This document shows, one piece after another, positions 2,823-31,559 of a stretch of DNA of 64,000 nt. Numbering within the stretch: position 1 is the first letter of the stretch; every line of letters starts with the position of its first letter. The stretch is from positions 256,001-320,000 of the forward strand of contig CAVRZA010000011.1 of the NCBI GenBank assembly GCA_963725665.1, given 5' to 3'. The position numbers and the translations under genes are program-made. The notes under the pieces are model-generated. The model was not told the DNA's origin. It did no database searches and saw nothing but the letters and a program-made list of their open reading frames with translations. The stretch is from an uncultured Actinomycetes bacterium. GTDB lineage: Bacteria; Actinomycetota; Thermoleophilia; UBA2241.

Positions 2823-4214
2823 CTAGGCGGTCAGCTCGTCCGCCATCTCGGCGAAGACTTCCACGTACCTGTCGGCCTCCGCCAGCGTGTGCTGCACCGA
2901 GATCGTGAACTCCTGGTCCCGTCCCGGGGCTGCGAAGATGCCGCGATTGGCGAGGTAGAGCCAGGCCAGGTCCATCACCTCCGCGTCCTGGTGCATCACG
3001 TAGCTCTCGTAGTCGGTCACCTTGGTGTCGGAGAACGTGATGCACCCCTTGGCGCCGATGGCCACCGGATACGCGGGAAGACGGTGCGCGTCGATGACCT
3101 CCTGGCAACCCTGCTTGAGCCGCTCGCGCACGCCGGCAAGCTGCGCGTACCCTTCGGGCGTCAAGACCTCGAACAGCGTCGCGCGGGCCGCCGCCATCGT
3201 CAGCGGGTTGCCGTTGAAGGTTCCGACCTGCCACACCTTGTCGTTCTCGACGACCGCGAACACCTCATCGCTGCCACCGATAGCGCCGGAAGGCACGCCG
3301 CCGCCGAGGCTCTTGGCGAGAGTGACCATGTCGGGCAGCACGCCGAAGTACTCGGTCCCGCCTCCCGGAGCGACAGTGAGACCTGTCTTGACCTCATCGA
3401 ATACCAGCACGACGCCGTGCTTCTTCGTGAGCTCGCGCACCCGCTCGAGGTAGCCCGGCTCGGGCAAGACGACGCCGATGTTCATCATCGCCGGTTCCAT
3501 GATCATGCAGGCCGGTACACGCCCCTCCGCCGCCAGCGTCTCCAGACGCCTCTCCATCGCGTCGGCGTCGTTGAAGGGCACGGCGACGGTCATGTCGACG
3601 ACCGCTTGCGGGATCCCTTCGCCGTAAGGGAGCGAGAAGTACGCATCACGTGGGCCCAGGTCGCCGTAGTTGCCCGGCACCGACACCATCACATAGTCGT
3701 GATGGCCGTGATAGGAACCGAAGATCTTCATCACGGTGTCACGTCCGGTGAGGGCGCGTGCGATCCTGATGGCGTCCATGGTCGCCTCGGATCCTGAGTT
3801 CGTGAACCGCCACTTGGGGAGCCCCCAGCGCCGGGCCAGCTCCTCGGCGACCTCGACCCCCGCCTCGGTGGGTTCGCAGTACTGGGTGCCGTGGGTCACT
3901 TGCTCCTGTATCGCCTTGACGATGGCGGGATGCGCGTGGCCGTGCACCATGCAGCCGAAGCCGTTGAGATAGTCGATGTACTCGTGGCCGTCGACGTCCC
4001 AGATGCGCGATCCCTTCCCGTCTTTCATGTAGATCGGCCAGGGGTCGCGCCAGTGGTACGACGACCCGATGCCCTTGGCGAGGGACTTCCGCGCACGCTC
4101 GTACATCGCCGCCGATCCGGGCGTGCTGTCGTTGAAGCGCGTCAGCTCGCGGGCACTCAACTGTCCCACGCGGTCGCGATCGAGCGGCCGCGATCGGATC
4201 TCCTGGGTCTGCAT
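2823..4214 (-). CDS. Class III PLP aminotransferase (GSA-aminomutase-like)
   Basis: DVDGHEYID, NSGSEA, VFDEVKTG, LAKSLGGG, GTFNGNP; GAGGGAG SD before ATG 4214. Confidence 0.9.
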   Translation of the reverse strand: MQTQEIRSRPLDRDRVGQLSARELTRFNDSTPGSAAMYERARKSLAKGIGSSYHWRDPWPIYMKDGKGSRIWDVDGHEYIDYLNGFGCMVHGHAHPAIVKAIQEQVTHGTQYCEPTEAGVEVAEELARRWGLPKWRFTNSGSEATMDAIRIARALTGRDTVMKIFGSYHGHHDYVMVSVPGNYGDLGPRDAYFSLPYGEGIPQAVVDMTVAVPFNDADAMERRLETLAAEGRVPACMIMEPAMMNIGVVLPEPGYLERVRELTKKHGVVLVFDEVKTGLTVAPGGGTEYFGVLPDMVTLAKSLGGGVPSGAIGGSDEVFAVVENDKVWQVGTFNGNPLTMAAARATLFEVLTPEGYAQLAGVRERLKQGCQEVIDAHRLPAYPVAIGAKGCITFSDTKVTDYESYVMHQDAEVMDLAWLYLANRGIFAAPGRDQEFTISVQHTLAEADRYVEVFAEMADELTA

Positions 4215-4368
4215 CTCGCTCCCTCCCTCTGCTGCCCGGCCCGGCGGACGTGCGCCGAGCGTCACCTTCTCGGCGAAGTCATCCTCCGGCTGCATACTTC
4301 GCGCCTGCTCGCACACCCCTCACCACCAGCGAGTGGTCATAGGTCTCGCCCGTGATCGACGATGCCTC

Positions 4369-5715
4369 TCATCGGCAGCGCCTGTCATCGACCCGGTGGC
4401 AGGCCGTCTTGCCGTCTCCGCTGGTCATCCTGGGCAGCGACATCGGCTCCGCCAGCTCGATACGCGGGGTGACGCCGATGGTCCCCTTCGTCGCCTTGGC
4501 AAGCTTCTGCGAGAGCTTCTCCCGCGCCTCTTCGTCCAGCTCGCTGAGCTCGCAGATCTCCACTTGAAGAGTGAGCTGGTCGCGGTTCATCGAGGTCTCG
4601 AGGACCATGCAGAAGTTGTTGCCGACCTTGTCGAACTGCGCCAGGACCTCCTCGATCTGGCTCGGGAACACGACGTACGCGCCGATCGACAGGGCCTCGT
4701 CACTCCGACCGGTGATCTTGCCTATTCTTGGATGCGAGCGGCCGCAGGCACACGGGCTCCACGTTAGCGACGACAGGTCGTGGCTGCGAAAGCGGATCAT
4801 CGCCATGGAATCGCTCGAGAGAGAGGTCCAGACGAGCTCGCCCGGCGCGCCGTCATCCACCCATTCGCCCGTCGCGCGATCGATGCACTCCACCAGGAAG
4901 GAGTCTGACCACACGTGCATGCCGTCCCTCTCCGGGCACTCACAGGCCATGCCGGGCCCCAGGAACTCGCCCATGCCGAACTCGTTGAAGGCCTCAACGC
5001 CCAGGCACGATTCGAGCCGTCGGCGCCCTGACTCGGGCCAGGGCTCGGCGCCGAACAAGCCCACCCGCAGGCTCGAGTCCCTGGCGAGATCGACGCCGCG
5101 CTCGCGCGCCCTGTCTGCGAGGTAGAGCCCGTAGGAGGGCGTCGTGACGATGGCGGTGACACCCAGGTCGACGATCAGGTCGATCTGCAGCTCGTACCGG
5201 CCGATGCCGGCAGGGACCACGCCGACGCCCATCTTCTGGGCGCCGTAGTGGAATCCGATCCCGGTGGCCAGCCCGTACGAGAAGCAGTTCTGGAGAAGGT
5301 CTCCCGGACGCAAGCCGACCATCCACAGCGAGCGCGCGTTCAGCGAGGCCCACTCGTCCATGTCGTGCCGCGTGGCGAAGATGGGGATGGGCTTGCCGGT
5401 GGTCCCCGACGTGGTGTGCACCTCGAGGACCTCGTTCCGCTCGCACGTCATCAGGCCGTGGGGATACGCCTCGCGGGCGGTCTGCTTCTCGAGGAAGGGC
5501 AACTTGCGCACATCCTCGAGCGCCGTGATGTGCCGGGGCTCGACGCCCGCTGCGCGGCACAGGTCCCGGTAGGCGGCGCTGCGCTCGTACGCCGTGGAGA
5601 CTCTGCTCTTGAGTCGCTCCAACTGCAGCTCCCGGAGCGCGCGAACGTCGAGCGTCTCAGCCCGCAAATCGAAGTAGGTCCGCAGCTCCTCGGTGTTGCC
5701 GATCGCCTGTCTCAT
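4369..5715 (-). CDS. paaK: Phenylacetate-CoA ligase family (aryl-acid CoA ligase)
   Basis: TSGTTGKP AMP-binding loop, TTPSY, GLFGAEPW, PCACGR, GRSD; directly downstream of iorAB. Confidence 0.85.
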   Translation of the reverse strand: MRQAIGNTEELRTYFDLRAETLDVRALRELQLERLKSRVSTAYERSAAYRDLCRAAGVEPRHITALEDVRKLPFLEKQTAREAYPHGLMTCERNEVLEVHTTSGTTGKPIPIFATRHDMDEWASLNARSLWMVGLRPGDLLQNCFSYGLATGIGFHYGAQKMGVGVVPAGIGRYELQIDLIVDLGVTAIVTTPSYGLYLADRARERGVDLARDSSLRVGLFGAEPWPESGRRRLESCLGVEAFNEFGMGEFLGPGMACECPERDGMHVWSDSFLVECIDRATGEWVDDGAPGELVWTSLSSDSMAMIRFRSHDLSSLTWSPCACGRSHPRIGKITGRSDEALSIGAYVVFPSQIEEVLAQFDKVGNNFCMVLETSMNRDQLTLQVEICELSELDEEAREKLSQKLAKATKGTIGVTPRIELAEPMSLPRMTSGDGKTACHRVDDRRCR

Positions 5716-5748
5716 ACGAATCCCCGATCCCCTACGGTACTCATCCGA

Positions 5749-6357
5749 TCAGACACGTGCGGGTGCGGGCGGGAGCCCTGACCGCCGCCCCACCGCGAAC
5801 GCCGCCAGGTTGACCTGCAGCCAGTCCGTGTTCACCGAGTTCTCGATCGCCCGTCGCCATGCCTCGTCTGCGAAGGTCAAGTGGTTGGCGAGCACGCCCA
5901 AGAGCACGACCCCTGCCACCTTGCCGCTCCCGGCCTCCTCGCCGAGCCTGTTGCCGTCCACCGCGATCAGGCGGTAGCTCTGACCGCGCATCCGTTCGAG
6001 CGCGGCGTCGGGGTAGGAGTGTGTGCCCGTCGCGGCTATCGGGGGGACGATCCTCTCGGTGTTGACGATGGCCACGCCATCGTCGGCGACGGAAGGAGCC
6101 CAGCGCAGCCCTTCCGCGATCTCGAACGCGAGGAGATAGTCGACCTCTCCCGGGGTGATGGCCGGAGCGATCACCCTCGTGCCGATCCTGACGTGCGCCT
6201 GCACGCTGCCGCCGCGCTGCGACATCCCGTGCGTCTCGCTCTCCTTGACTTCGAGACCCCCGTGAAGAAGCGCCGCCTCGGCGACGATCGTGGCGGCCAG
6301 TATGACGCCTTGGCCCCCGACACCGACGATCAGGATGTCCGCGTGTCCGTCGCCCAT
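5749..6357 (-). CDS. iorB: Indolepyruvate:ferredoxin oxidoreductase beta subunit
   Basis: GVGGQG and ETHGMSQRGGSV motifs; start overlaps the iorA stop. Confidence 0.9.
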   Translation of the reverse strand: MGDGHADILIVGVGGQGVILAATIVAEAALLHGGLEVKESETHGMSQRGGSVQAHVRIGTRVIAPAITPGEVDYLLAFEIAEGLRWAPSVADDGVAIVNTERIVPPIAATGTHSYPDAALERMRGQSYRLIAVDGNRLGEEAGSGKVAGVVLLGVLANHLTFADEAWRRAIENSVNTDWLQVNLAAFAVGRRSGLPPAPARV

Positions 6358-8138
6358 CACGCCCTCGCCTTCGAGATCGCCTGAGGCCGGCAGACCTGAG
6401 CGCATATCGAGCAACCCGTGCACGCACTGGCGTCGATGGCGATCTTGTGCCGGTTCTTCACCATGGAGTCGGTCCAATGGAGGGCGGGGCAGGCGAGCTT
6501 CATGCACTGCTGGCAGGCGGTGCAGGCCTCCTCGTCCACCTCGTAGACCTCGTCGGCCCTTACCTTGCGCGGGAACAGGACGCACGGCCGGTTGGTGATG
6601 ACGACCGAGGGTCCCTCGAAGTCCAGAGCGGCCCTCAGAGCGGCCGTGCAGGCGTCGAGATCATACGGATCGACGGTCTGGACGCTCTTCACGCCGAGCG
6701 CCCGGCACAGCGCCGGCAAGTCGACGGGGGGTGTCTCGACGCCCGAGAGGTTGCGCTCGGAGCCGGGGTGCGTCTGCCCTCCGGTCATGGCCGTGATGTT
6801 GTTGTCCTGGATCAGGAGGGTCACGTTCGTCTTCTGATGGACGGCGTTGAGCAGACCCGAGACACCTGAGTGGAAGAAGGTCGAGTCCCCGATCACAGCG
6901 ATGGAGCCTTTCTCGTAGCCCCCCGCCCGCCCGACCCCCTGCGCCATGCCGATGCTGGCGCCCATGGCGACGACGGTGTGCATGGCCGACATGGGCGGCA
7001 GACAACACGAGTCGTAGCAGCCGATGTCACCGTTCACGTAGAGGCCGAGACGCTTGATGGCCGTCACCATGCCGCGGTGCGGGCAGCCGGCGCAGAAGAT
7101 CGGCGGCCGCGGGATGACGCTCGTGTCGCGCGCGACGCGAGGCTTCTGCCACCGCGGCAGAGCGACACCGGCCTCGTCGAGGCCACGGCCGACGACCTGT
7201 GGAGTCAGCTTCCCCTGCGCTGGGAAGAACGCCTTTCCTTCGACGGCGATGCCGTCGGCGAGGATCTGCTCCTCGAGGAAAGGCTCAAGCTCCTCCACCA
7301 CGAAGAGGCGTTCGACTTGCTGCGCGAACCGCCGAACGGCGCCGATCGGGAGCGGGTTCACAAGACCGAGCTTGAGGAAAGCGGCGTCCGGCACGGCCTC
7401 CTTGGCGGCGAGGTAGGCCGCCCCGGAGGTGATGATGCCGAGTCTCTCGAGATCGCCTACGCCCGGCTCCACCCGGGCGAGGGGGGGTCCCTCGGCATAC
7501 TCGCACAGGCGGGCCAGCCTCGCGGCCAACCCGCGATGAAGCTCCCGCGAGAACACCGGGACCAGGCAGTACTTGGCGGCGTTCTTCTCGAGGTCCTTGC
7601 GCTCACGCTCGACGCGCTCGCCGAGCTCGACCAGGGATTTCGAGTGCGCGATGTCGGTCGTCACGCGCACCATCACCGGGATGTCGTAGGTCTCGCTGAG
7701 CTCGAGCGCGATGCCGACGAAGTCCTTGCATTCCTGGCTGTCTGAGGGTTCGAGTATCGGGATGCCTGCGAGCCGGCCGAAGTAGCGATCGTCCTGCTCG
7801 GTCGACGAGCTGTCCATGCCCGGGTCGCTGCCGCAGACGACCACTAGGCCGCCGTTCACTCCCGTATACACGGAGCTGATCATGGGATCGGCGGCCACGT
7901 TGACGCCGGGGCTCTTCATCGCGGTCAGGGCCCGCACGCCGCCGACCGCGGCGCCGAAGGCCACTTCGTAGGCCACCGCCTCGTTGGTGGACCACTCCGC
8001 GTACACCGGGTCGTAACGAGCGATGTTCTCAAGGATCTCGCTGCTGGGGGTGCCCGGGTAGGCAGCCGCGACCCGCACCCCGTGTTCGTAGGCTCCGCGC
8101 GCGATGGCCTCGTTGCCGAGCATGAGCCGCCTCGTCAT
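6357..8138 (-). CDS. iorA: Indolepyruvate:ferredoxin oxidoreductase alpha subunit
   Basis: GNEAIARGA, YPGTPSSEI, PRPPIFCAGCPH, GDIGCY, GDSTFFHSG, TAMTGGQ, C-terminal 2x[4Fe-4S] motifs. Confidence 0.93.
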   Translation of the reverse strand: MTRRLMLGNEAIARGAYEHGVRVAAAYPGTPSSEILENIARYDPVYAEWSTNEAVAYEVAFGAAVGGVRALTAMKSPGVNVAADPMISSVYTGVNGGLVVVCGSDPGMDSSSTEQDDRYFGRLAGIPILEPSDSQECKDFVGIALELSETYDIPVMVRVTTDIAHSKSLVELGERVERERKDLEKNAAKYCLVPVFSRELHRGLAARLARLCEYAEGPPLARVEPGVGDLERLGIITSGAAYLAAKEAVPDAAFLKLGLVNPLPIGAVRRFAQQVERLFVVEELEPFLEEQILADGIAVEGKAFFPAQGKLTPQVVGRGLDEAGVALPRWQKPRVARDTSVIPRPPIFCAGCPHRGMVTAIKRLGLYVNGDIGCYDSCCLPPMSAMHTVVAMGASIGMAQGVGRAGGYEKGSIAVIGDSTFFHSGVSGLLNAVHQKTNVTLLIQDNNITAMTGGQTHPGSERNLSGVETPPVDLPALCRALGVKSVQTVDPYDLDACTAALRAALDFEGPSVVITNRPCVLFPRKVRADEVYEVDEEACTACQQCMKLACPALHWTDSMVKNRHKIAIDASACTGCSICAQVCRPQAISKARA

Positions 8139-8383
8139 GGCCTCATCTCACCGTGCCCCTCCACCAGACAGCAAGCCGACTCCATTATCATCCAGGATAC
8201 CGGACGGGCTTCTTCACGGCACGCATTGTGTGAACGGACTCAAAGGCCTGCGTCACGGTCCTCGGCGTCGGTCACGGCGCCCAGTGCGGGTGTCGCCTGC
8301 CAAAGAACGGGGTGTCCCTCCCACGCGCATGGTGCGTTCTCTGTCGCTTGACGTATCACGCCCTCACCAGAAAGATGTGCACC

Positions 8384-9091
8384 ATGGGCGAACAGACACC
8401 ACCTAGAACGGGAGCGAACCACGCGGTCGCTCCGGACGTACCTCTGGGGGCACTGGGCGGTGTCCTACGCCGGGCGCGTGAAGCCGCTGGCATCGGCGTA
8501 CGGGAGATGGCCAGCAGACTGGGCTGCTCCCCCAGCCACGTCTCCCAGGTCGAGCGCGGCGTGACGAGCCCCTCAGTGCACACGCTCTTCAGCATGGTCA
8601 GAGAGCTGGGCGTGTCGCTCGACGACTTGCTGGTCGCGGCGTCGGCGGACATGGTACCTCCGAGCACGGGGGAGATCGGACCGTGGCCGGGGCGCATCGT
8701 CCGTTCTGCCGACCGCCGTTGCATCGCGCTGCCCGGCGGTGTCAAGTGGGAGATGCTCATCCCCGCCGTCGAGGAAGGCTTTGAGTTCGTCGAGTACGTC
8801 TACGAGGTCGGCGGTCGCGACGGCGACGATTTCTTCAGACGAAACGGTTGGGAGTACGGCCTGGTACTCGAGGGACGGCTGAAGGGCGCCATTGGTTTCG
8901 CGGAGTTCGTTCTCGAAGCTGGTGACTCGATCGCCTTCGACTCCAGCGCCCCGCACCGCTTCTCCAACGCGGGCGATATCCCGGCTCGGGCTGTCTGGGT
9001 CTGGCACAGCCCGGCCATCGCGGGCGACAAGCCCGCCCAGGCCCTCGATGCTCGACGGGCCCACAACGAGCCCGACCGCAACGAGCCGTGA
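8384..9091 (+). CDS. XRE-family HTH plus cupin transcriptional regulator
   Basis: HTH (LRRARE...SQVERG...PS), cupin (E...VLEG...L.AGDSIAFDSSAPHRF). Confidence 0.88.
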   Translation: MGEQTPPRTGANHAVAPDVPLGALGGVLRRAREAAGIGVREMASRLGCSPSHVSQVERGVTSPSVHTLFSMVRELGVSLDDLLVAASADMVPPSTGEIGPWPGRIVRSADRRCIALPGGVKWEMLIPAVEEGFEFVEYVYEVGGRDGDDFFRRNGWEYGLVLEGRLKGAIGFAEFVLEAGDSIAFDSSAPHRFSNAGDIPARAVWVWHSPAIAGDKPAQALDARRAHNEPDRNEP

Positions 9092-9299
9092 GCAGACGGG
9101 GCGCTCGCAAAGAGTACCCCGAGCGGAGAGGGGGTGAGGGCCACCCAGGGCATCCACCGCACGTCCACGTGGTCTCGGCTGGCTGAGTGCGACCGGGAGC
9201 GGTCGCCAAAGCGACGTCGGCACGGGCAGATCGCCCACCGGCAGTCTCCAGGCGGCGACCGCGTTTCATCGGCAGGCGTCAGATGGAGGTGTCGTCGCA

Positions 9300-9938
9300 G
9301 TGAGTTTCTTCACCGAAATGAAGGATGCGGTGGTCAGGGGGGACAGCCAGGCGTGCATCGACCTGGCGACAAAAGCCGTCGAGTCCGGCGTCGATCCCCA
9401 GCAGGCCATCCAGGAGGGGTTCGCCCCGGGTATGGAGGTCGTGGGCCGGGGGTTTGAAGAAGGAAGCCTGTTCCTCCCCGACATGATACTCGCAGCCGAG
9501 GCTATGACAGCCGGAGTGAGCGTCCTCGAGGCGGCGATGCCCGCGAACGAACTCGAGGGAAGGCGAAAGGCGAAGGCCGTCGTCGCCACCGTCCAGGGCG
9601 ACGTGCACGACATCGGCAAGAACATCCTGCGCATCGTGCTGTCGACGTCCGGCTTCGACGTGGTGGACCTCGGCCGCGATGTGAAGGTGGCGACCATCAT
9701 CGCGCGGGCGAGGGAGGAGCGGGCAGACATCATCGGCGCATCGGCCTTGATGACGACGACGATGATGTACATGAAGGAGCTGCTCGAGGAGCTCTCCGAG
9801 GCGGGGATCCGCGAGGAGTTCAAGGTCATGGTGGGTGGCGCGCCGGTCACTGACGCCTGGGCGCGGGAGATCGGCGCCGACGGGTACGCCAAGGACGCCT
9901 TCGCCGCGGTCCAGCTGGCCAAGCAGCTGGTGAAGTGA
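9300..9938 (+). CDS. Methyltransferase cognate corrinoid protein (MtmC/MttC-like)
   Basis: Cap domain (GMEVVG..FE...FLPDM), DVHDIGKN B12 motif, SALMTTT, VMVGGAPV. Confidence 0.93.
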   Translation: MSFFTEMKDAVVRGDSQACIDLATKAVESGVDPQQAIQEGFAPGMEVVGRGFEEGSLFLPDMILAAEAMTAGVSVLEAAMPANELEGRRKAKAVVATVQGDVHDIGKNILRIVLSTSGFDVVDLGRDVKVATIIARAREERADIIGASALMTTTMMYMKELLEELSEAGIREEFKVMVGGAPVTDAWAREIGADGYAKDAFAAVQLAKQLVK

Positions 9939-10037
9939 CGCGGCCGTTTCGGCCGTTGATGCGACGACCGGATGTCCACGCCGCGCGCGCTGAGGCGGGC
10001 ACCATCCGGCATCAGCACTGATGGGAGGAGCAACGAA

Positions 10038-11420: not shown

Positions 11421-11485
11421 ATCACGCTGGAGTGACCGGCCGGCTCTCGTGGGCCGGCGCTGTCCGGGCCGATCGCGAAGGAGCC

Positions 11486-12856: not shown

Positions 12857-12999
12857 GACGAAAGCGGCATTACGGCGTGGGCCAGCTTCGAGACTGTGTC
12901 TGGCGCACGCCGCGACCCGCCCCAACGACCGCGATACATGTCGTCGCACAGCCTCAGAGCCAGCACCCCGCTACACCTGCGACCCGGATGGTGAGTGCC

Positions 13000-13668
13000 A
13001 TGCCACAGCTGTTCACACTGCACGAGCAAAGCGAGACGCACATCAAACTGCAGAGGCAGATCCAGGAAGTGGACATCACGGTCGACGTGTCGACTGCCTT
13101 CGACCCGCATCTCGGCCCGCACACGACCATCGACTTCCTCGACCACCTCGTCGCCACCCTGGCCTGGGGCCTCTGCATGTCGGTGGGCTGCACGGTCGCC
13201 GAAGGGCGATGGCGCTCGACCCACACGATAGCTGAGGACGCTGGGCAGACCATCGGAGCGGCGCTCAAGAGCTTCTTCTATCGCAGGATGGTCGCGGAGG
13301 GCATCAACGGCTGCGGCTCGGCCGTCTTTGGCCTCGACGAAGCCTTGGCGAGGGCGATGGTGGGCGTAGAGGGCAGACGGAACTCGTTCATCACTGTGGC
13401 CGCTGACTGCCCCGGTGGCCGCCTCGAGTCCGTCGAGGACATGCGATCGGCCGACTGCGTCGCTTTCGTCGAGGGCTTCGCCCAAGGCTTCCCGGCCACC
13501 GTCCACCTGGACCTGCTCACTGGTCGGGACCCGCACCACGTCTGGGAATCGGCGTTCATGGCCTTGGGCGAAGCCCTGCGGATGGCTTTCCAGACCAATC
13601 CCTGGAGGATCGCGAAGAACAACCCCTACTACGCCGACGAGGGCCTCGCCGACGCGTCGCTCGCATAG
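13000..13668 (+). CDS. Divergent imidazoleglycerol-phosphate dehydratase (HisB)-like protein
   Basis: FLDHL, THTIAEDAG, G...LDEAL, DPHHVWESAF match the IGPD fold, but the first metal motif and the FK lysine are altered. Confidence 0.7.
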   Translation: MPQLFTLHEQSETHIKLQRQIQEVDITVDVSTAFDPHLGPHTTIDFLDHLVATLAWGLCMSVGCTVAEGRWRSTHTIAEDAGQTIGAALKSFFYRRMVAEGINGCGSAVFGLDEALARAMVGVEGRRNSFITVAADCPGGRLESVEDMRSADCVAFVEGFAQGFPATVHLDLLTGRDPHHVWESAFMALGEALRMAFQTNPWRIAKNNPYYADEGLADASLA

Positions 13669-13693
13669 CGACGCAGCCGATCGCGGGGGGACT

Positions 13694-14800: not shown

Positions 14801-15071
14801 TGTCCCCTCTGCTCCTTATATCCACCACGCGGGCCACCGACGGGCCTCCGACCTGCGCCGAGAGCACCCACGATGGCCAACTGCGCGCTCAACCTCTGCG
14901 TATCCTTCCCCGACCTCACGTCGCTGCCGAGCGACCCGTCGGCGGCGCGCCTGCTGCTGGCGTCCATCGGCGCCTCGATCGAAAAGGCGCCCATCGTGTC
15001 CAGCCCTGTGCTAGCTGCAGCCACTCGACGGGGCCGGGAGCCCTGGCTCCCGGCCCCTCGCGATCACGAGA

Positions 15072-23270: not shown

Positions 23271-23309
23271 GGCGTCGCCGCTGTCGCCGCGACCCTCGTC
23301 ACCGCAGTC

Positions 23310-24608
23310 TCAATGCGCGACATGGAACGGCTCCGTGTGGATGTCGGCCATCAACGCCTTGCGGTCCGTGACCTTCTGCCAGCGAGCCGCCCAGACGTCC
23401 TCGAGCGTCGGCCCGGGCGTATCGAAGAGCTTGGCCACGCCGAGCCGCTGGCGTTCGGCTTCGCAGTCCTGGCAGTGGCACTCGAACTGGTAGTCTTCGG
23501 GCTCGGTGTACTTCGAGATGATGCCCTCGTAGTTGCGCAGGATGACCTGATGGTCGGCCTGCGAGATCATGTAGGTCGGGATGACCGGCGTCTTCCCGCC
23601 GCCGCCGATGGCGTCGATGATGTAGGTCGGGACGGCGAAGCCGGTGGTGTGCCCGCGCAGGCTCTCGTAGATCTCGACGCCCTTGGCGACCGAGGTGCGG
23701 AAGTGGGCGGTGCCCTCGGCGAGATCGCACTGGTAGTAGTAGTAGGGCTTGACGCGGATCCTCACGAGCCCGTGCACGAGCCGCTTCATCACCTTGGCGC
23801 AGTCGTTGACGCCGCGCATCAGCACCGACTGGTTGCCGAGGGGGATGCCGGCGTCGGCCAGCATGGCGCAGGCGCGCTCCGAGTCGGGCGTGATCTCCTT
23901 CGGGTGGTTGAAGTGGGTGTTGAGGTAGAGCGGGTGGTACTTCCTGAGCATGGCGCAGAGCTCGGGGGTGATGCGCTGCGGGCAGACCACCGGCATACGC
24001 GAGCCGATGCGCACGATCTCGACGTGGTCGATGGCCGTTACGCGCTGCAGGAGCCACTCGAGCTTCTCGTCGGAGAGCGTCAGAGGGTCGCCGCCCGAGA
24101 GGAGCACGTCGCGCACCTCGGGGTTGCGCTGGATGTAGGTGAAGGCGTTCTCGTAGTCCTGGTCGGACACCGCGCCCTCGTGCTCCCCCACGATGCGCCG
24201 CCGCGTGCAGTGCCGGCAGTACATCGAGCACATCTCGGTGGTGATGAAGAGCACGCGGTCGGGGTAGCGATGCGTGATCAGCGTGGTCGGCGAGTCGATC
24301 GTCTCGGCGATGGCGTCCTTCATGTCGGCCGCCCCGACGATCAGCTCCTTCGTCGTCGGGACGCCCTGCTGGCGCACGGGGCACGACGCGTCGTCGGGGT
24401 CCATGAGCGACGCGTAGTAAGGGGTCACGGCGACCCTGAACTTGCCCATGCAGGCCTCGAGGTCGGTGCGCTGCTCGTCGGTCAGGTCGAGCACCTGGTC
24501 GAAGTCCTCGCCGATGGTCAGGCGGTTGCGCACCTGCCAGCGCCAGTCGTTCCACTGGGCCTCGGTGACGTCCTTGAAGAGGGGGATCTCGTTCCACTGT
24601 CGTGCCAT
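23310..24608 (-). CDS. kamA: Lysine 2,3-aminomutase (radical SAM)
   Basis: WNDWRWQ, THRYPDRVL, CSMYCRHCTRRR, SGGDP, NTHFNH, GGGGK (PLP Lys), LRNYEG, C-terminal CxCxxC. Confidence 0.93.
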   Translation of the reverse strand: MARQWNEIPLFKDVTEAQWNDWRWQVRNRLTIGEDFDQVLDLTDEQRTDLEACMGKFRVAVTPYYASLMDPDDASCPVRQQGVPTTKELIVGAADMKDAIAETIDSPTTLITHRYPDRVLFITTEMCSMYCRHCTRRRIVGEHEGAVSDQDYENAFTYIQRNPEVRDVLLSGGDPLTLSDEKLEWLLQRVTAIDHVEIVRIGSRMPVVCPQRITPELCAMLRKYHPLYLNTHFNHPKEITPDSERACAMLADAGIPLGNQSVLMRGVNDCAKVMKRLVHGLVRIRVKPYYYYQCDLAEGTAHFRTSVAKGVEIYESLRGHTTGFAVPTYIIDAIGGGGKTPVIPTYMISQADHQVILRNYEGIISKYTEPEDYQFECHCQDCEAERQRLGVAKLFDTPGPTLEDVWAARWQKVTDRKALMADIHTEPFHVAH

Positions 24609-24745
24609 GTCGTCGTCTCCTATCTCGCGGGAGCCTCGCCCTCGGCTCCGCTGCCCTGGCCCGAATCTCTCTCATACGAGGCGTGCCGGCGTAAGAAGTG
24701 GGTCAGCACGCAGAGGTCGTCAGGGGCCGCGAAGGCCCTTTGGGG

Positions 24746-26276
24746 TCACAGACCGGAAGTGGCGATGATGCGCGCCAGGGTCTCCGCCTTCTCGGCTTCG
24801 AGGGGCGGGACGCGGTGCTCCGCAAGGATGCGCGCCGCGAGCTCCTCCGCCTTGCGCTCGGAGCCGACCCTGCCCTCGCGCTGCCACGCTTCGAGCGAGC
24901 TGCGGTCGAAGACGCGCGGACGCCACACATCGCGCATGTGGCGGCGCGTGTGCCTCTGCGCGAGGGCGTTGCCCCCGATCCCGACGGCGGCAATCGTCTC
25001 CTGCGCCATAGTCTCCTCGTCGACCTCTATGCCTTCGGCGATGCGCGCGCACACGGCGCGCGACTCGCAATCCAGAACGAGCTGCCCCGGCGAAAAGGCG
25101 CGGCCACCGGCGAGCAGGCCCGCGCCCATCAGCAAGGCTGGGATCCCCAGGGCCGTGATCAGTGTGGCGAACGTAGTCTCCACCGACGAGCGCCACCCCG
25201 GCTGTGCCGCCCCTGCGGTCGCCGGCGCGATCAGCGACGGCAGCCCGAACGAGCTCATCAGCTCATTGTACGCCAGCGCGAGGAGCCAGGCGCGGGGGGC
25301 GTCGGTGAGGTCGGCCGGGGGCGACCACGGGGCGTCCTCCGTAGGGCTCGCGATGAAGGTCGTGCCTGGCGCGACGAGCTGCACGACGGCGCAGGCGGCG
25401 AGGGCGCTCGCGGCCCGCCGGGCGAGGCGCTCGCCGAGGCCGCCGGCCGCGGCGAGCGCCTCGCCCCCGGTCGTCGCTGGAGCTGATCCTGCGGCGCCGG
25501 ACGTATCGCCCAGCGCGAGCGCGAAGCCCACCGGCAGGCCGCGCCGGGCGGCCACGAGAAGCGCGTCGACCGCCGACGCGGCGGCAAGCTGGCCCGGCGC
25601 TACCAGCGACACGGGTGGTCGGCGGCGCAGCACCTCGTCGCCAGCGACCGCCGCCGCCATGGCGGCCACCGCCTCGGCCTGCGCCGGCGAATCGACCGTC
25701 GTCAGCATGACGTGCTTCGTCGTGTTGGCGAGGCACACCTCCAGCTCTTCGGCGACGGCTCTGCCAGGCCTTCGGGCGGCGAGAGGCGCGCCCGCCGCCG
25801 CGCCACCGCGCGCAAGGGCGAGCGGCGGCCCGGCGACGAGGGCGACCTCGGGCAGCCCGTCGGCAAGTCGACAGGCCTCGGCGAGGTCGCTGCGCTCGGC
25901 GGGCCGCCGCTCGCCGCCGGCGGCAAGCAGCTCGGCCGCCGGTCCGCCGGTCGCCAGCAGGGCAGCTCCGCCCGAGCACGACGTCGCACTCCGGCACCCG
26001 TCCGCCGAGCACCGGGGTGGTCGACGCGAGCGCGAGCGCCTCTTCGATCAGGCGCGCCGGAGGCCGGGCGAGACCCGTCAACTGATCGAGCGGCACGCCG
26101 GCGTCGGCGAGGGCCGCGCGCGCGCGCTCGCCGGGCACGACGACGCCGCGTGTCTCGAGCAGGCGCAGCGCCTCGGCGCGCAGCCACGCGAGCTCCGCCG
26201 AGCCGAGGGCGCGCAGGGCCAGACGGCCCTGCGCGCCCACGGCCGCCGTCTCCGCTCGCGACCCGTTCCCGGTCAC
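24746..26276 (-). CDS. Degenerate MttB/MtgB-family methyltransferase paralogue; frameshift near 25972
   Basis: N-terminus (ALRLLETRGV) and C-terminus (NTTKH, GIEVDEETMA, HTRRHMR, EHRVPPL) are joined by removing one G in CTCGGGCGG; GTGA overlap with the upstream mttB. Confidence 0.7.
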
Positions 26277-27745
26277 GTCGCCGCCAGAGCCTCCGCGTCG
26301 GCGCGCGCCACGATGCGCGCAAGCTCGGCTTGCGCGTCGTCGGGCAGCGGCTCCGGCCGGTGGTTCTCGAGGATGTCGGCCGCGACGGCCGTCGCCCTCT
26401 CGAGGGCGCCGGCCTTGCCGGCCGCGAGCCACTGGTCGTAGGTCGAGCGGTCCCACACCGCCGGGCGCCAGATGTCCTTCATGTGCCGTCGGGTGTGCTT
26501 CTCGGCCAAGTAGGTGCCGTTGGGGCCGATCTCCTTGATGACGTCGAGGGCCAGCGTCTCGTCGTCGACGACGATGCCCTCGGCCATCCTCTGCACGATG
26601 CCGTATATCTCGCACTCCATCACCATGTGCGGATACGAGAGGATCTTGGAGCCGTTCAGAAGACCCGTCCCGTTCATCATGTCGGCCACCGTCATGACGC
26701 TGGCGAAGGTCGAGAGCGAGTCGTCGACGGCGGCCTGCCAGTCGGGCTCCTTGGCGCCCGTCGCCATGGTGCCAATGGCCATGGGTAGACCGTAGAAGTG
26801 CGCCAGCTGGGTCGCCGCGGCGGCAAGGAGGTAGTCCTCGGGACTGCCGCCGGTGTAGCCGCCGGTCTTGAGGTCGATGACGCTGGGGGCGCCGGAGAAG
26901 AACGCCGGACAGCCCGGGTAGGCCAGCTCGAGGAGCACCACGCCTGAGAGGGCCTCGGCGTTCTGCACGACGAGGTTGCCGGCGAGCGTCGCCGGCGCCG
27001 TTCCGCACGACAGGGGCATGGGCATGAAGCCGCTGGCGAGGCCGTATTCGGCCGCGACCAGGTTGGCGTCGAGGTTGGGTCCGTCGTGGGCCAGGGGATC
27101 GACCGCGCACTGCATGAAGCTCACGATGGGCCGCCGCCGCAGCTCGTCGGTGCCGCCGACGATGGCGGCGGCCATCTCGACCACGGCGCGAGCCGCCTTC
27201 TCGCCGACCGTGGTCACCGCCTGATAGTGCTTCGTCGTGTTGTTGAGCACCGCCTCGGAGTCGTGCAACGCCTTGGTGGCGGGTGGCACGTCCTGCGAGG
27301 TGACGATCGGTCCCCAGTAGTAGGAGACGTTGGGCAGCGCGTCCACGAACCGAGCTGACTCGGCGGCGTCGGCCTTCGTCGAGGGGCGCTTCTCACCGCT
27401 GCGCGGATCGAGCACGAAGACACCCGAGGCGTCGTTGGAGAGGTAGCAGTGCCGGCCGTCGATGAGCAGGTCGCAGGCGCGATCGCGGGCCGCGAGCACG
27501 TACTCCCTGGGCGCCCATGACGCGGCCTCCATGACGATCGCGCGCGGCAGGCGCACGACACTCGTCGCGCGGTCGACGCGGCAGCCGCCCTTCTCGAGTG
27601 CGTCGAGCGCGCGCGCCGAGGGGAAGTGGACACCGGTCTCCTCGAGGACCTCGAGAGTGGCGTCGTGGATGCGTTCGATGTCGGACGGCGAGAGCACCTC
27701 CCAGCGGAGGCGGGGGACGATGGGGTTGATCCTCGGGGCAGTCAT
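26273..27745 (-). CDS. MttB/MtgB-family corrinoid methyltransferase, pyrrolysine-free
   Basis: IERIHDATLEVLEETGV, TAPATLAG, DLKTG..GSPE, AKEPDWQA, GIVVDDETLA, GPNGTYL..HT; no in-frame TAG. Confidence 0.92.
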   Translation of the reverse strand: MTAPRINPIVPRLRWEVLSPSDIERIHDATLEVLEETGVHFPSARALDALEKGGCRVDRATSVVRLPRAIVMEAASWAPREYVLAARDRACDLLIDGRHCYLSNDASGVFVLDPRSGEKRPSTKADAAESARFVDALPNVSYYWGPIVTSQDVPPATKALHDSEAVLNNTTKHYQAVTTVGEKAARAVVEMAAAIVGGTDELRRRPIVSFMQCAVDPLAHDGPNLDANLVAAEYGLASGFMPMPLSCGTAPATLAGNLVVQNAEALSGVVLLELAYPGCPAFFSGAPSVIDLKTGGYTGGSPEDYLLAAAATQLAHFYGLPMAIGTMATGAKEPDWQAAVDDSLSTFASVMTVADMMNGTGLLNGSKILSYPHMVMECEIYGIVQRMAEGIVVDDETLALDVIKEIGPNGTYLAEKHTRRHMKDIWRPAVWDRSTYDQWLAAGKAGALERATAVAADILENHRPEPLPDDAQAELARIVARADAEALAAT

Positions 27746-27961
27746 CGGACGGCGACCTCATATCTCGGACAGGCGGACGCGTCGGAACGGGGCACGGGCT
27801 GCGGCCGCCGCGCACGGCCGGGCGCGGCGGCCCTCGCCGCTACGCGGCGAAGGTGCGGTAGATGTGGCTGATCGAACCGGCGACCACGGCCGTCACTCTA
27901 CCATGTCAGCGGGCCGCACGCGTGTGCGGTACAGTACCCAGAGGACCCCCGGGAGGATGGC

Positions 27962-29050
27962 ATGAAGCTGGTCGCCGACTGCGAGAAGATCCGTCAAAAC
28001 GCCCGCGCCGTCGTCGAGCTGTGCGCCACGCACGGCATCGAGGTCGCCGGGGTGACGAAGTGCTGTTGCGGCGAGCCCGAGGTGGCCCGCGCCATGCTGG
28101 CGGGGGGCTGCACCATGCTCGCCGACTCCCGCCTCGCCAACGTGGCGCGCATGCGCGACGCCGGCATCGACGCTCCCATCATGCTCCTGCGGCTCCCGTC
28201 GCTGAGCGAAGCCGACGAGGTGGTCAGGCTCACCGACTACAGCCTCAACAGCGAGGTCGAGACGGTCAGGGCGCTGTCGCACGCGGCGCTGCGGGCCGGC
28301 GCGACGCACGCCGTCGTCCTCATGGTCGACACGGGCGACCGGCGCGAGGGCGTGCAGCCCGAGCGTGTCGTCGGGGTCTGTCGCGAGCTCCTCGAGCTGC
28401 CGGGAATCGACCTCGCCGGTCTGGGCACGAGCCTCAACTGCCTCTGCGGCGTCTGCCCGACGCCGGAGAACCAGCAGCGCTTCGCCGACATCGTCGAGGA
28501 GACCGAGGCGGAGCTGAGCGTCCGCTTCCGCCTTGTGTCGGGTGGCCACACCGGCAACCTGCACCTGGTGCAGAAGGGTCTCGTGCCGGCGCGCTTCAAC
28601 CACTTCCGCGTCGGCGAGGCCATCCTCACCGGCACCGATTTCTCCACCTGGGCCGAGCTGCCCGTGCCCTACATGGACACCTTCAAGGTCTACGCCGATG
28701 TCGTCGAGCTGCAGGACAAACCCTCCGCACCCGAGGGCACGATCGGGCCCGATGCCTTCATGGAGGTGCACGAGTGGCCCGACCGCGGCGTGCGCCGCAG
28801 GGCCATCGTGGCTCTGGGCGAGATCGACCTGCGCACGCGGAGCCTCATCCCGACGCGCCCCGGGATCGAGCTCGTAGGGGCGAGCTCCGACCACCTCGTG
28901 CTCGACGTGACCGAGGCGGAGCCCCCGATACGCCTGGCCGAGGAGCTCGAGTTCGACACCATCTACCCGGCCGTCTCCACGGGCTGGGCGAGCTCCTGCA
29001 CGACGAAGATCGTGCTGCCCATCAAGGAGTCGGCGACGCTACAGCGCTGA
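27962..29050 (+). CDS. Ornithine/alanine racemase family PLP enzyme (Orr-like)
   Basis: GVTK, ADSRL.N, LLRLP, SLNSE, MVDTGDRREG, SGG, RVGE, GASSDH. Confidence 0.85.
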   Translation: MKLVADCEKIRQNARAVVELCATHGIEVAGVTKCCCGEPEVARAMLAGGCTMLADSRLANVARMRDAGIDAPIMLLRLPSLSEADEVVRLTDYSLNSEVETVRALSHAALRAGATHAVVLMVDTGDRREGVQPERVVGVCRELLELPGIDLAGLGTSLNCLCGVCPTPENQQRFADIVEETEAELSVRFRLVSGGHTGNLHLVQKGLVPARFNHFRVGEAILTGTDFSTWAELPVPYMDTFKVYADVVELQDKPSAPEGTIGPDAFMEVHEWPDRGVRRRAIVALGEIDLRTRSLIPTRPGIELVGASSDHLVLDVTEAEPPIRLAEELEFDTIYPAVSTGWASSCTTKIVLPIKESATLQR

Positions 29051-29085
29051 CGGCCGGGCGGGGGCGGGCGCGCCGCCGCCGTGAG

Positions 29086-29994
29086 TCACTGCCCCGTGAG
29101 CTGCGCGATGGCCTCCTCGAACTCGGGCACGCCGCTGGCGGGCGGCTGCGACGCGTCGAGGCCGTACCACTCCTTCGTCATCGCGGTCAGCGACCCGTCC
29201 GCGCGCATCTTCTTCACAGCGTAGTTGAGAAGCGCGAGGAGATCGGCCTCGCCCTTGCGGGTCGCGAAGCACATCGCCTCGTAGTAGAAGGCCTGACCGG
29301 AGAGCTGCACAGGCTTGCCGCTCGCGATCGCCCGCTGCGCTGTGAGATCAGCGGTCATGACGCCATCGACGCGACCCGAGACGAGGGCGTGCAGGGCGCC
29401 GGCAGAGGTGTCGTAGGTCGCGATCTGCACCCCGCCCACCGCCTGCAGGAAGGTCTGGTAGGTCGTGGCCGCGCCCACGCCGATGCGCGCGCCTTTCAGC
29501 GCAGCGACGGTAGTGATAGCGGCAGAGCCCTGGCTCACGACGACCTGGCCCTGCGCGTAGTAGTAGGGGTCGGCCATGGCCACCTGCTTCAGATTGTCGG
29601 CCGTGCGTGTCATCGAGCCGATCGAGACGTCGAAGCTGCCACCCTTGAGACCCGCGGGCACGCCGGCCCAAGCCGGGTGGACGAACTTGAGCTGCACGCC
29701 CAGCAGCTCGGCGACCTTCTCGGCCACATCGACGTCGAAGCCGATGAGCTTACCGTCCTCTTCGTAGCTCTGCGGCGGATAATCGGCATCGTTGGCGACG
29801 ACGATCTGCCCGGTCCGCGCGATCTTCGCCGCCGCCCCCCTCGGCGCGTGGCCGAGGATCTGCTCGACGGTGCTGCCCTCTGCCTTGGGCGAGCTGCTCG
29901 TGCCCGGGATCAAGCTGCACGCCGCCAGCGCCACGGCGGACCCTACGACGCCGGCCAGCACGGCCACCGCCATGAACGCCCTACTCTTCTTCAT
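29086..29994 (-). CDS. Polar amino-acid ABC transporter substrate-binding lipoprotein
   Basis: Signal peptide with LAAC lipobox, DYPPQSY, GFDVDVA, SBP family 3 pattern. Confidence 0.88.
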   Translation of the reverse strand: MKKSRAFMAVAVLAGVVGSAVALAACSLIPGTSSSPKAEGSTVEQILGHAPRGAAAKIARTGQIVVANDADYPPQSYEEDGKLIGFDVDVAEKVAELLGVQLKFVHPAWAGVPAGLKGGSFDVSIGSMTRTADNLKQVAMADPYYYAQGQVVVSQGSAAITTVAALKGARIGVGAATTYQTFLQAVGGVQIATYDTSAGALHALVSGRVDGVMTADLTAQRAIASGKPVQLSGQAFYYEAMCFATRKGEADLLALLNYAVKKMRADGSLTAMTKEWYGLDASQPPASGVPEFEEAIAQLTGQ

Positions 29995-30203
29995 GATCCT
30001 TTGCTTTCGTTGCGATGCCTCCACCCGGTCCGCGCGGCGAGGACTGCCGGTGATGAACCCCCCCAGACTCCACTGAGTCGATGTCGCGTCCGCTCGTTAG
30101 ACGCAGCCAACGCGTGTCATCATGCGGGACTCTTACACCCACAGATCGATGTGACAAGCAGGGCGGCACCCCTTCGCCAGCGCACGAAGATGCGAAAGTC
30201 CCG

Positions 30204-31559
30204 CTATGCCACACCTTCGACCAAGCGTCTCAGCTCCTCGTCGAGCGCTTCGTCGAGCCGCGGCGGCAGGTGCGTGGCAAGGAGGTCGCGGACCCATTCC
30301 TCCGGTCCCTTCGACCCTTCGGCGCGCCCGGCCGCGCCCTCCCCGAAGTCTCGCGCGTAGACCACGAGGCGCGGCGCGACTGACGGACGATCGGTCGCGC
30401 CGGAGACCAAGGCGCGCGCCAGGCCGGCGATCTCGGCGCCGAGCAGCATCTCGGAGTATGAGAAGACACGGCCGCCGGCCACCATGCCGACCCCGGTGAG
30501 CATGTCGACGCCGGCCATCATCGAGACGAAGGTCGTGGTCACATCCTCCATGGCGGTCTGCCACCCCGGCTCCTTGGCTCCTGAGGCGTTGACGCCGCAC
30601 TGCGTGGGCAGCCCGTAGAACTCACCGATGTCGGCGGCGGCGGCGCCCATCAGGGTGTCCTCAGGGGCGCCGCCGGTAAAGTCGCCGGTCTTCAGGTCCA
30701 TGATGCTCGGGATCAGACAGATGAAGACGGGACACCCCGGGTGCGCCGCCTGCACCACGGCCACGCCGGCGAGGGCCTCGGCGATGCCGACGACGAGCGA
30801 ACCCGCCATCGTGATCGGCGTCGTCGAACCCCCCATCGGCATGGTGACGAAGCCGACGGGGATACCGGCGGCGGCGAAGACAAGCGCCGCCTCGAGAGTG
30901 CCTTCGTCGTTGCCCAGTGGCGTGACCGTGCCCAACAAGGCCGAGATTGGCGGGTGCTCGCGCGCCTCGCGCTCGCCGCCCACCACGACGCGGGCGATCT
31001 CGACCGCCGCGCGCGCCTGGACCAGGTCCACGACGGTCACCGTCTGCACGTGCTTGCCGGTGTTCGCCAGGGCCAGGTAGAGCTCGTCTAAGCCGCGGCG
31101 CTCGACCGGCCGATCCTGGGCGCTCACCGCCGGCCAGCAGAAGTCGACCTCATCGAGCGCGTCGGCGAGGCGGGCGATGGCCGCCACGTCGGCCGCGGCC
31201 GTCGCCCGCCTCACGCCGCTCTCGAGGTCGTAGATCTCGCTAGGGCAGCCGTCGGTCGTGACGAGCGCACCCCCGGCGGTCGACAGGTGGCGGCCGGAAC
31301 GCGCGCCGAGGGTAAGGTGACGGGGCGCCCGCCCCACGAGCTCGCGCGTCAGTTCCGGCGGGAAGAGGACCCGCTCGCCGTCGACGCGCGCCCCGGCCGC
31401 CGCCACCGCCTCACGGGCGCGTGCCGAAGGGACGGCGATGCCGGTCGTCGAGAGGACCTCGAGGGCGGCCGCATCGAGCTGCTCGAGGTCTGGCCGCGCC
31501 AGGATGTGCAGACGTCGGAGCCGCACGTCACCGAAAGGGCGCGGTGGTCTCGCGGTCAC
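30204..31559 (-). CDS. MttB/MtgB-family methyltransferase paralogue, pyrrolysine-free, shortened C-terminus
   Basis: ALEVL..TGI, NTGKH, TTPITMAG, MDLKTGDF.GGAPE, AKEPGWQ. Confidence 0.85.
   Translation of the reverse strand: MTARPPRPFGDVRLRRLHILARPDLEQLDAAALEVLSTTGIAVPSARAREAVAAAGARVDGERVLFPPELTRELVGRAPRHLTLGARSGRHLSTAGGALVTTDGCPSEIYDLESGVRRATAAADVAAIARLADALDEVDFCWPAVSAQDRPVERRGLDELYLALANTGKHVQTVTVVDLVQARAAVEIARVVVGGEREAREHPPISALLGTVTPLGNDEGTLEAALVFAAAGIPVGFVTMPMGGSTTPITMAGSLVVGIAEALAGVAVVQAAHPGCPVFICLIPSIMDLKTGDFTGGAPEDTLMGAAAADIGEFYGLPTQCGVNASGAKEPGWQTAMEDVTTTFVSMMAGVDMLTGVGMVAGGRVFSYSEMLLGAEIAGLARALVSGATDRPSVAPRLVVYARDFGEGAAGRAEGSKGPEEWVRDLLATHLPPRLDEALDEELRRLVEGVA

Follow-up and report, generated by a model that had tools for sequence, protein, structure and literature searches.

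Introduction

Corrinoid-dependent methyltransferases of the MttB family that lack pyrrolysine (Pyl) have been described for glycine betaine (MtgB), carnitine (MtcB), proline betaine (MtpB), γ-butyrobetaine (MtyB) and phosphocholine (MthB) (PMC13080624), and MtqB of Methanococcoides methylutens Q3c, which acts on tetramethylammonium and choline, is given as the first function shown for a Pyl-free member of the MtmB family (PMC13044021). For lysine fermentation, Perret et al. described a variant, that of 'Candidatus Cloacamonas acidaminovorans', in which the HemL-like 3-aminobutyryl-CoA aminotransferase Kat takes the place of Kal, its gene occupying the kal locus in lysine clusters (PMC3149608). 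Genes resembling those of each system lie together at positions 2823-31565 of a 64-kb stretch of DNA from an uncultured Actinomycetes bacterium (Thermoleophilia; UBA2241; assembly GCA_963725665.1, contig CAVRZA010000011.1, positions 256,001-320,000 of the forward strand; G+C ~69%), which as a whole is referred to here as the window.

A first-pass annotation of the window had treated this region as one 29-kb island encoding one pathway, in which N-methyl groups are removed and the demethylated carbon skeleton is fermented. Genes were picked here by third-position G+C and named by Pfam and NCBIfam profiles, bit scores being judged against the NCBIfam equivalog cut-offs, and every gene named in that annotation was recovered at or near its predicted position. 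The region thus holds one Pyl-free MtmB-family and three MttB-family methyltransferases, one corrinoid protein and one RACo activase, together with three HemL-like class III aminotransferases, KamA, Kce, an Orr-like racemase, IorAB, a PaaK-like ligase, HisC, a divergent paralogue of imidazoleglycerol-phosphate dehydratase (IGPD) and four transport genes. The clustering of MttB genes exceeds chance, as the 31 MTTB matches in the 3.73-Mb genome predict ~0.24 per 29 kb and three are observed.

The idea of a single island did not survive comparison with related genomes, because the half with kamA/kce and the half with iorAB/paaK/hisC are not conserved together. We instead favour, with a probability of about one half, a reading in which the region consists of two separate catabolic modules, each pairing a corrinoid N-demethylase with enzymes that would consume the demethylated amino compound. 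This reading is built on the identities of the genes, their order and their conservation, and at the level of gene order these data support a coupling of corrinoid demethylation to amino-acid catabolism in two independent modules.

Conservation of the KamA core

KamA was sought in 60 relatives (36 genomes of the same family and 24 of other families of the class) and was present in 30 of the 36 same-family genomes, with 70-87% identity in full-length matches. Gene order was compared in the 40 kb around KamA from ten relatives representing several genera. Nine of the ten possess a row consisting of an orthologue of one window methyltransferase, MttBb (73-82% identity), one or two more MttB genes, KamA, RACo, EamA, the class III aminotransferase AT3 (between EamA and Kce) and Kce. 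The order KamA-RACo-EamA-Kce is common to all ten, with RACo directly after KamA, one to four EamA copies at the same position, and Kce orthologues of 67-83% identity. Metagenome contigs bearing MttBb orthologues of at least 68% identity tell the same story: KamA is found in 15/15 of those with at least 4.5 kb of downstream sequence, and KamA together with RACo in 12/12 of those with at least 6.5 kb. Thus, the proposal of the first-pass annotation that a corrinoid N-demethylase and amino-acid catabolic genes are joined stands in its physical sense, conservedly so for KamA and the MttB orthologues that precede it, and in one other Thermoleophilia genome (below) for the MtmB-like/corrinoid pair beside IorAB. 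A neighbourhood search likewise bore out the association of MttB with kamA/kce, within one family, and not that of the MtmB-like gene with kamA/kce, as neither KamA nor Kce was found near the MtmB-like gene in any of 68 loci.

In all ten relatives a GGDEF gene directly follows Kce. In the window that gene is found at 472-2520, and because Kce abuts it in every relative compared, the sequence at 2823-16703 is read as a 14-kb insertion in this genome. The insertion is called module B below, and the conserved core at 17069-31565 is called module A.

The genes of module A are on the reverse strand (-) with the exception of the racemase. The outermost is MttBc (30204-~31565; PF06253 228 bits over profile positions 27-403), an intact methyltransferase of the MttB family whose C-terminus is short and divergent; the Pfam profile had suggested a truncated or frameshifted gene, a suggestion ruled out by orthologues that align in one frame to their own C-termini. 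Next are a family-3 solute-binding protein of a polar amino-acid ATP-binding cassette (ABC) importer (SBP3; 29086-30024; PF00497), to which the cystine and Lys/Arg/Orn-type models assign 133-146 bits, all below their cut-offs, and an Orr-like pyridoxal-phosphate racemase of the ornithine/lysine type (27962-29050, +; NF040742 328 bits, cut-off 480), which is found at the same place in relatives G023, G012 and G007 and in some metagenome loci. An ABC permease and an ATPase follow SBP3 in relatives G003, G027 and G028; both genes are missing from this place in the window, where the racemase stands instead. MttBb (26273-27745; PF06253 329 bits) is an intact, Pyl-free MttB-family methyltransferase, and it is followed by the fast-evolving MttBa (24746-~26270; PF06253 109 bits over the C-terminal three quarters), whose frame changes once between 25888 and 25971, leaving the N-terminus in another frame.

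KamA itself (23310-24608; radical SAM lysine 2,3-aminomutase) scores 573.6 bits against TIGR03820, above the cut-off of 525.4, and is single-copy in the genome by tblastn. The frame at 23302-24675 matched no family, the correct one being 23313-24608, and an in-frame TAG reported for five matches from genus g2 is the natural stop, ~10 codons earlier than in the window gene, rather than a Pyl codon. RACo (21489-23270), one of two copies in the genome, possesses the Fer2, RACo_linker, Raco_middle and RACo_C_ter domains of a reductive activator of corrinoid proteins, and is followed by two EamA transporter genes of the DMT type (19541-21492; PF00892), by AT3 (17938-19286) and by Kce (17069-17893). 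The genes are tightly packed, with 138 bp between MttBa and KamA, 40 bp between KamA and RACo, and the end of RACo overlapping the first start codon of the EamA2 open reading frame (ORF). AT3 is split over two frames, and comparison with two intact orthologues shows that one base has been lost next to a C-run near 18597. No indels at 18570-18600 or 25888-25971 were among those listed from four DNA runs, which supplied short contigs of relatives only; the best-matching run shares 0.17 of sampled words with the stretch, and no RNA run was among those listed as matching it. A 668-aa Kce-aminotransferase "fusion" (P0348) was not used, as its N-terminus is 84% identical to Kce and its middle looks like read-through.

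The company that MttB and RACo keep with lysine genes suggests demethylation of a methylated lysine-type compound, and import of a basic amino-acid derivative fits because of the tight gaps, the presence of KamA and RACo on the MttBb contigs, and the ABC genes and Orr in relatives. Several observations weigh against such a coupling. Only one family yielded the MttB-KamA link: among 400 other Actinomycetota genomes, 13 have a KamA (43-57% identity), and none of the 13 has MttB, RACo or AT3 near it, 6 of them having ordinary Kdd/KamDE/Kce clusters instead, and the KamA of a sister family (52% identity) stands alone. A single lineage seems to account for all the loci that bear MttBb, given their common MoeA-sortase-MttBc context. 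Relative G007 has the KamA-RACo-EamA-Kce order without adjacent MttB genes and without AT3, and both AT3 and MttBa in the window carry frame changes. Furthermore, KamA and KamD, a gene of the same pathway discussed below, share a contig in 11 relatives at a distance of 35-73 kb, so that the whole oriC-proximal region is syntenic in the family and the conserved gene order is in part ancestry. The MttB-KamA link may rest on a single ancestral rearrangement that was inherited. Finally, the core has no corrinoid protein in the 40-kb stretches of any of the ten relatives, the MttBb-orthologue metagenome contigs carry one anywhere along their length in 3 of 57 cases, and no gene for a methylcorrinoid:tetrahydrofolate methyltransferase is present in the window, pterin-binding genes lying on other contigs; both components must therefore come from elsewhere in the genome.

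Most of these points are what would be expected if the genes are neighbours by ancestry, with MttB and RACo acting on common quaternary amines or other methylated compounds, KamA, Kat and Kce fermenting free lysine, and one inherited rearrangement near oriC having brought them together. The ~28 MttB paralogues of the genome lend weight to this view, as an MttB gene next to any given gene tells less in such a background. Against it stands the manner in which the genes are arranged: they are interleaved, with KamA between MttBa and RACo at the short distances given above and with the RACo-EamA2 overlap, and their order has outlasted turnover in the locus (EamA and MttB copy number, presence or absence of Orr, the 14-kb insertion) and is kept in all 15 assessable metagenome contigs. 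Neighbourhood by ancestry is somewhat doubtful, and deserves to be taken seriously.

Relationship to lysine fermentation

The first-pass annotation took the coupling of demethylation to fermentation, in this combination of genes, to be a candidate for something undescribed. The fermentation itself is not new, as KamA, a class III aminotransferase and Kce fit the described Kat variant, and the remaining genes are found on the same contig 52 kb from the core. There, at C11:328-335 kb, is a row consisting of KamB, an unnamed ORF, KamD, KamE, a thiolase and Kdd, in which KamD scores 774 bits (cut-off 600), KamE 346.5 (280), KamB 258.8 (210) and Kdd 259.5 (200), with the thiolase also above its cut-off. 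KamDE is the β-lysine 5,6-aminomutase, KamB its reactivase and Kdd the 3,5-diaminohexanoate dehydrogenase. The same row is present in relative G007. KamD is found in 33/36 genomes of the family and in 0/24 genomes of other families of the class; KamA and KamD occur together in 30 of the 36, KamD alone in 3 and neither in 3.

The most natural reading of KamA, AT3 (candidate Kat) and Kce is that they supply the remaining half of an ordinary lysine fermentation of the Kat type, because AT3 is HemL-like, as Kat was described to be, and lies beside Kce. AT3 and its intact orthologue match glutamate-1-semialdehyde (GSA) aminomutase models best, at 284 bits, below the cut-off, and the names of the best 120 database relatives of AT3 are generic, with Kat not named among them. 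Kce scores 372.6 bits against NF052387, just below the cut-off of 382, and 278 bits against the solved Kce 2Y7D. As in the Kat variant of 'Candidatus Cloacamonas acidaminovorans' (PMC3149608), KamA, KamB, KamD, KamE, Kdd and thiolase are all present above their cut-offs, and a HemL-like class III aminotransferase lies beside Kce. The window genome differs in that the pathway is split into two loci, and in that its kamA-kat-kce half is interleaved with MttB-family methyltransferases, RACo and transporters. It is this position of half of a lysine fermentation among MttB, RACo and transporter genes that is the unusual feature of the locus.

The order of events in such a pathway could also be reversed, with KamA, the aminotransferase and the β-keto acid cleavage enzyme (BKACE) acting on a still-methylated compound and the MttB enzymes demethylating the product. 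Nε-trimethyl-lysine, for example, would be converted to its β-isomer and then to a β-keto acid, to be cleaved with acetyl-CoA to a γ-butyrobetaine-type CoA ester, and an MttB-family enzyme for γ-butyrobetaine, MtyB, is known (PMC13080624). The BKACE family accepts various β-keto acids, the NCBIfam models for 3-oxoadipate and 3,5-dioxohexanoate enzymes also match Kce, and four BKACE paralogues are present in the genome, with another MttB gene close to one of these. The window Kce is nevertheless very close to the lysine-pathway enzyme by both scores given above, KamA exceeds the lysine 2,3-aminomutase cut-off, and the co-occurrence of KamA with a complete KamDE/Kdd set fits unmodified lysine as the substrate of the aminomutase, so that a reversed order seems improbable. 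In that neighbourhood, at C11:43659-47625 (L038 7593-11631), the BKACE paralogue scores 329 bits to the Kce model and lies ~1.7 kb from the MttB gene.

Methyltransferases and their corrinoid partners

None of the three window MttB genes has an in-frame stop, and the Pyl column is occupied by Ala, Ala and Thr; the Pyl position of the solved Pyl-containing MttB 7XCL aligns to Ala in MttBb. The absence of Pyl from the window methyltransferases is meaningful because the genome itself appears to use Pyl. A TAG codon is found exactly at the Pyl column in 5 of the 28 genomic MttB paralogues (C2:287866-289347, C1:21736-23118, C4:576234-577655, C1:397676-399097 and C2:361235-362659), an MtmB of 631 bits with one TAG is present at C3:245990-247345, and PylS (C6:296347) and PylD (C6:343844) score above their cut-offs. 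Pyl-type mttB and mtbB have been reported as expressed by peat Actinobacteriota (PMC10805028).

Corrinoid methyltransferases are extremely expanded in this genome of 3.7 Mb, with ~28 MttB-family genes (31 matches), 27 matches to the B12-binding domain and 4 BKACE paralogues. Homologues of corrinoid proteins number 13. Pterin-binding matches consist of three weak ones (66-75 bits), one of which adjoins the second RACo, and a strong one of 263 bits, which we guess to be folP. Module A resembles the characterized Pyl-free MttB systems (PMC13080624) in the MTTB fold family, in the lack of a Pyl codon, in an ATP-dependent RACo-type activase within the cluster, and in the presence of corrinoid proteins and pterin-binding methyltransferases in the genome. 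It differs in that the core has neither a cognate corrinoid protein nor a tetrahydrofolate methyltransferase, in that the neighbours are lysine-fermentation genes, and in that substrate residues of MtgB are not conserved. The glycine-betaine residues Y97, R312, H348 and F356 of MtgB, which were located by manual counting along the 9YCE alignment at an offset of +2, align in MttBb to Ala, Ala, Asn and Ser, and no MttB paralogue among the 28 of the genome has an Arg at the R312 column. Thus nothing in these residues ties the window MttB proteins to acidic quaternary amines or to any substrate, a further point against the coupling. No description of a link between MttB and lysine was found in the literature searched, subscription journals and supplementary files being outside that search.

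If module A does couple the two processes, an N-methylated lysine-type compound would be imported, with Nε-mono-, di- or trimethyl-lysine as a specific guess, and the MttB paralogues would transfer its methyl groups onto a corrinoid protein whose gene lies elsewhere, from which a pterin-binding methyltransferase, also encoded elsewhere, would pass them to tetrahydrofolate. RACo would re-reduce oxidized cobalt, and the core together with the KamB-KamDE-thiolase-Kdd operon would make up the full Kat variant of lysine fermentation. What we infer from this context is which substrates are used, in which direction the flux runs, and that the demethylases hand over to the fermentation. A more specific version, in which, throughout the family, the three conserved MttB paralogues strip Nε-trimethyl-lysine or a related methylated diamino acid stepwise, the lysine enters Kat-type fermentation, and a second clade, of Pyl-free MtmB proteins, demethylates N-methyl aromatic amino acids or histidine derivatives before IorAB, is in our estimation unlikely. 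Its stepwise demethylation would have a counterpart in the way that MttB, MtbB and MtmB serve tri-, di- and monomethylamine, respectively.

The inserted MtmB-like and IorAB genes

Module B is centred on a Pyl-free MtmB-family methyltransferase (10038-11420, +; PF05369 298 bits) without an internal stop, in which a Tyr aligns to Pyl202 of Methanosarcina barkeri MtmB (1L2Q). A 460-aa protein in the collection is 100% identical to it and covers 95% of the 482-aa ORF. The family of this 460-aa protein is sizeable, the best 120 matches listed ranging from 84% to 47% identity. No MtmB-like orthologue of more than 39% identity was found in the 60 relatives. Directly upstream is its cognate corrinoid (B12-binding) protein (9300-9938, +; TIGR02370 224 bits, above the cut-off of 215), preceded by a PuuR-like regulator with HTH_3 and cupin domains (8312-9091, +; Pfam) that diverges from iorA and leads the corrinoid operon; regulator orthologues of 71-87% identity precede the corrinoid protein and the MtmB-like gene in L040, L049 and L076.

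On the other strand (-) is a row made up of IorA, an indolepyruvate/arylpyruvate:ferredoxin oxidoreductase subunit (6357-8138; IOR_alpha 635.3 bits, cut-off 650.9), IorB (5749-~6348; NF005322 208.6 bits, cut-off 237), a PaaK-like aryl-acetate/acyl-CoA ligase (4369-5715; TIGR02155 373.1 bits, cut-off 646.3) and, as its last gene, the HemL-like class III aminotransferase AT1 (2823-4316; Aminotran_3 199 bits; GSA aminomutase 348 bits, cut-off 398). IorAB is near the equivalog cut-off, and the ligase is only PaaK-like. Downstream of the methyltransferase are a second HemL-like class III aminotransferase, AT2 (11522-12856, +; NF000818 396.6 bits, cut-off 398; 35% identical to AT1), and an IGPD (HisB-like) gene (12958-13668, +; PF00475, 76-81 bits), which is a divergent paralogue because the canonical hisB (209 bits) is found beside hisD at C4:292.7-294.5 kb; homologues of the IGPD-like gene (41-55%) are found near the MtmB-like gene in L075 and L081. 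A HisC-family aminotransferase (13694-14800, -; TIGR01141 343 bits, above the cut-off of 277) and, at the edge of the insertion, an amino-acid permease of the APC family (15072-16703, -; PF13520) complete the set. Inspection of both edges for signs of a mobile element turned up no direct repeats flanking the insertion. The only feature there is a hairpin at 2710-2756, between the GGDEF gene and AT1, with 21-nt arms that are 95% complementary, probably a terminator.

The strongest support for module B as a functional unit comes from another genome. In the Thermoleophilia metagenome-assembled genome (MAG) L039, a permease (79% identical to that of the window) leads a row on one strand that continues with the corrinoid protein, the MtmB-like gene, IorA, IorB, PaaK (81%) and AT1 (82%), all at 67-82% identity and, for IorA to AT1, collinear with the row in the window. 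Neighbours were also counted in the 68 MtmB-like loci mentioned above, which come from species-representative genomes. The corrinoid protein is adjacent in 62 of these, and a HisC-like gene is directly downstream in 15 (Syntrophaceae, other Deltaproteobacteria and Spirochaetota); the remaining associations are with an MttB gene (17 loci), an AT1-like aminotransferase (10), IorA (3), the IGPD-like gene (2) and PaaK (1). Other orthologue loci feature polyamine-type ABC transporters, aldehyde:ferredoxin oxidoreductase, a pterin-binding methyltransferase, or ornithine-carbamoyltransferase/amidohydrolase genes, and because these neighbours vary, the wider MtmB-like clade is not tied to one context.

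Two observations on the wider clade may be recorded here. Ornithine/aspartate carbamoyltransferase and amidohydrolase genes recur near the MtmB-like gene in L049, L076, L050 and L081 (Thermoleophilia, Desulfobacterales and Spirochaetes), joined in L076 by a carbamate-kinase-like gene, from which one might suspect that part of the clade acts on an N-methylated ureido or guanidino compound. In L040, another Thermoleophilia MAG, the MtmB-like module has within a few kb of it a dimethylamine methyltransferase gene (Dimeth_Pyl; 10713-12125, -) whose match breaks at profile position 353/355, in the manner that a Pyl codon would produce.

Set beside MtqB and MtqC (PMC13044021), the window pair is similar in belonging to the MtmB family without Pyl and in the placement of the methyltransferase gene next to that of its corrinoid protein. 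It differs in being bacterial and in having aminotransferases, IorAB, a ligase and an amino-acid permease as neighbours and not methanogenesis genes; none of the 68 loci retrieved is from Methanococcoides. Similarly, the IorAB and ligase genes resemble known IorAB and phenylacetate-CoA ligase-like enzymes in that IorA and IorB are close to their cut-offs and a PaaK-like ligase is adjacent, and differ in that all three fall below the cut-offs and are joined to a corrinoid methyltransferase pair in two Thermoleophilia genomes.

Read as catabolic, module B would use its MtmB-family methyltransferase and the cognate corrinoid protein to demethylate what is probably an N-methylated amino acid or amine that has an aromatic or imidazole side chain. 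The aminotransferases (HisC and the HemL-like enzymes) would make a 2-oxo acid that IorAB would convert to an acyl-CoA, and the PaaK-like ligase would handle the matching pair of acid and CoA thioester.

The enzymes of this row can be imagined to run in the opposite direction. Synthesis of aromatic amino acids from aryl acids likewise employs IorAB in combination with an AMP-forming ligase, which counts against a catabolic role, and on general enzymological grounds an AMP-forming ligase beside IorAB suits activation of an acid over conservation of ATP. Module B could then be an anabolic or salvage system in which the PaaK-like ligase, IorAB and an aminotransferase work reductively from an aryl acid to an aromatic amino acid or histidine-like compound, with the MtmB-like pair as an unrelated neighbour. 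HisC scores as a genuine histidinol-phosphate aminotransferase, has one close orthologue only in the 36 relatives (76%, partial), and may be the only such enzyme of the cell, because the next best match in the genome is 30% identical, a second point against the catabolic reading; the counts of 3/68 for IorAB and 1/68 for PaaK beside the MtmB-like gene also favour unrelated neighbours. The single-strand row of L039, with the permease and the methyltransferase pair at its head, argues against this, as do the HisC-like genes directly after the MtmB-like gene in 15/68 loci of several phyla and the existence of a paralogous IorAB-PaaK set at C2:191-195 kb. Taken together, an anabolic module B is a long shot, and we retain the catabolic reading.

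Surrounding features

The modules lie 6-35 kb from the replication origin region, dnaA (window 37928), dnaN, recF, gyrB and gyrA being found at 37928-48158. A scan of 13000-32500 for promoters and terminators yielded no promoter-like sites and 7 terminator-like sites, as against 4.0±1.9 in shuffled sequence, and is uninformative for so high-GC a genome. At 35003-36439 (-), one ORF combines a Thia_YuaJ thiamine transporter domain with thiamin pyrophosphokinase domains, representing either a fusion or a frame problem. A 705-aa ORF of the GCV_T (aminomethyltransferase) type at 51715-54944 (-) overlaps an Aminotran_1_2 ORF in another frame, which might reflect either another frame error or two calls that overlap.

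Biological implications

Most members of the very large MttB and Pyl-free MtmB families have no known substrate, the characterized ones having as substrates a few betaines, choline-type compounds and tetramethylammonium. The operon-level link to lysine fermentation makes methylated lysines a cheap and concrete substrate panel for three orphan MttB clades, and the IorAB/HisC context makes N-methyl aromatic amino acids and histidine derivatives candidates for a bacterial clade of Pyl-free MtmB. If the link between the MttB genes and KamA is inherited gene order only, then what remains is an ordinary, split lysine-fermentation pathway in a methyltransferase-rich genome. These organisms abound in metagenomes from peat, wetland and sediment, which are the habitats of runs that match parts of the stretch (in small shares only). 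In environments of this kind, methanogens face competition from bacterial methylotrophy for methylated amines (PMC10805028). Should the stepwise reading of methyl-lysine demethylation prove true, it would constitute an anaerobic, cobalamin-dependent catabolism of methyl-lysine without described precedent.

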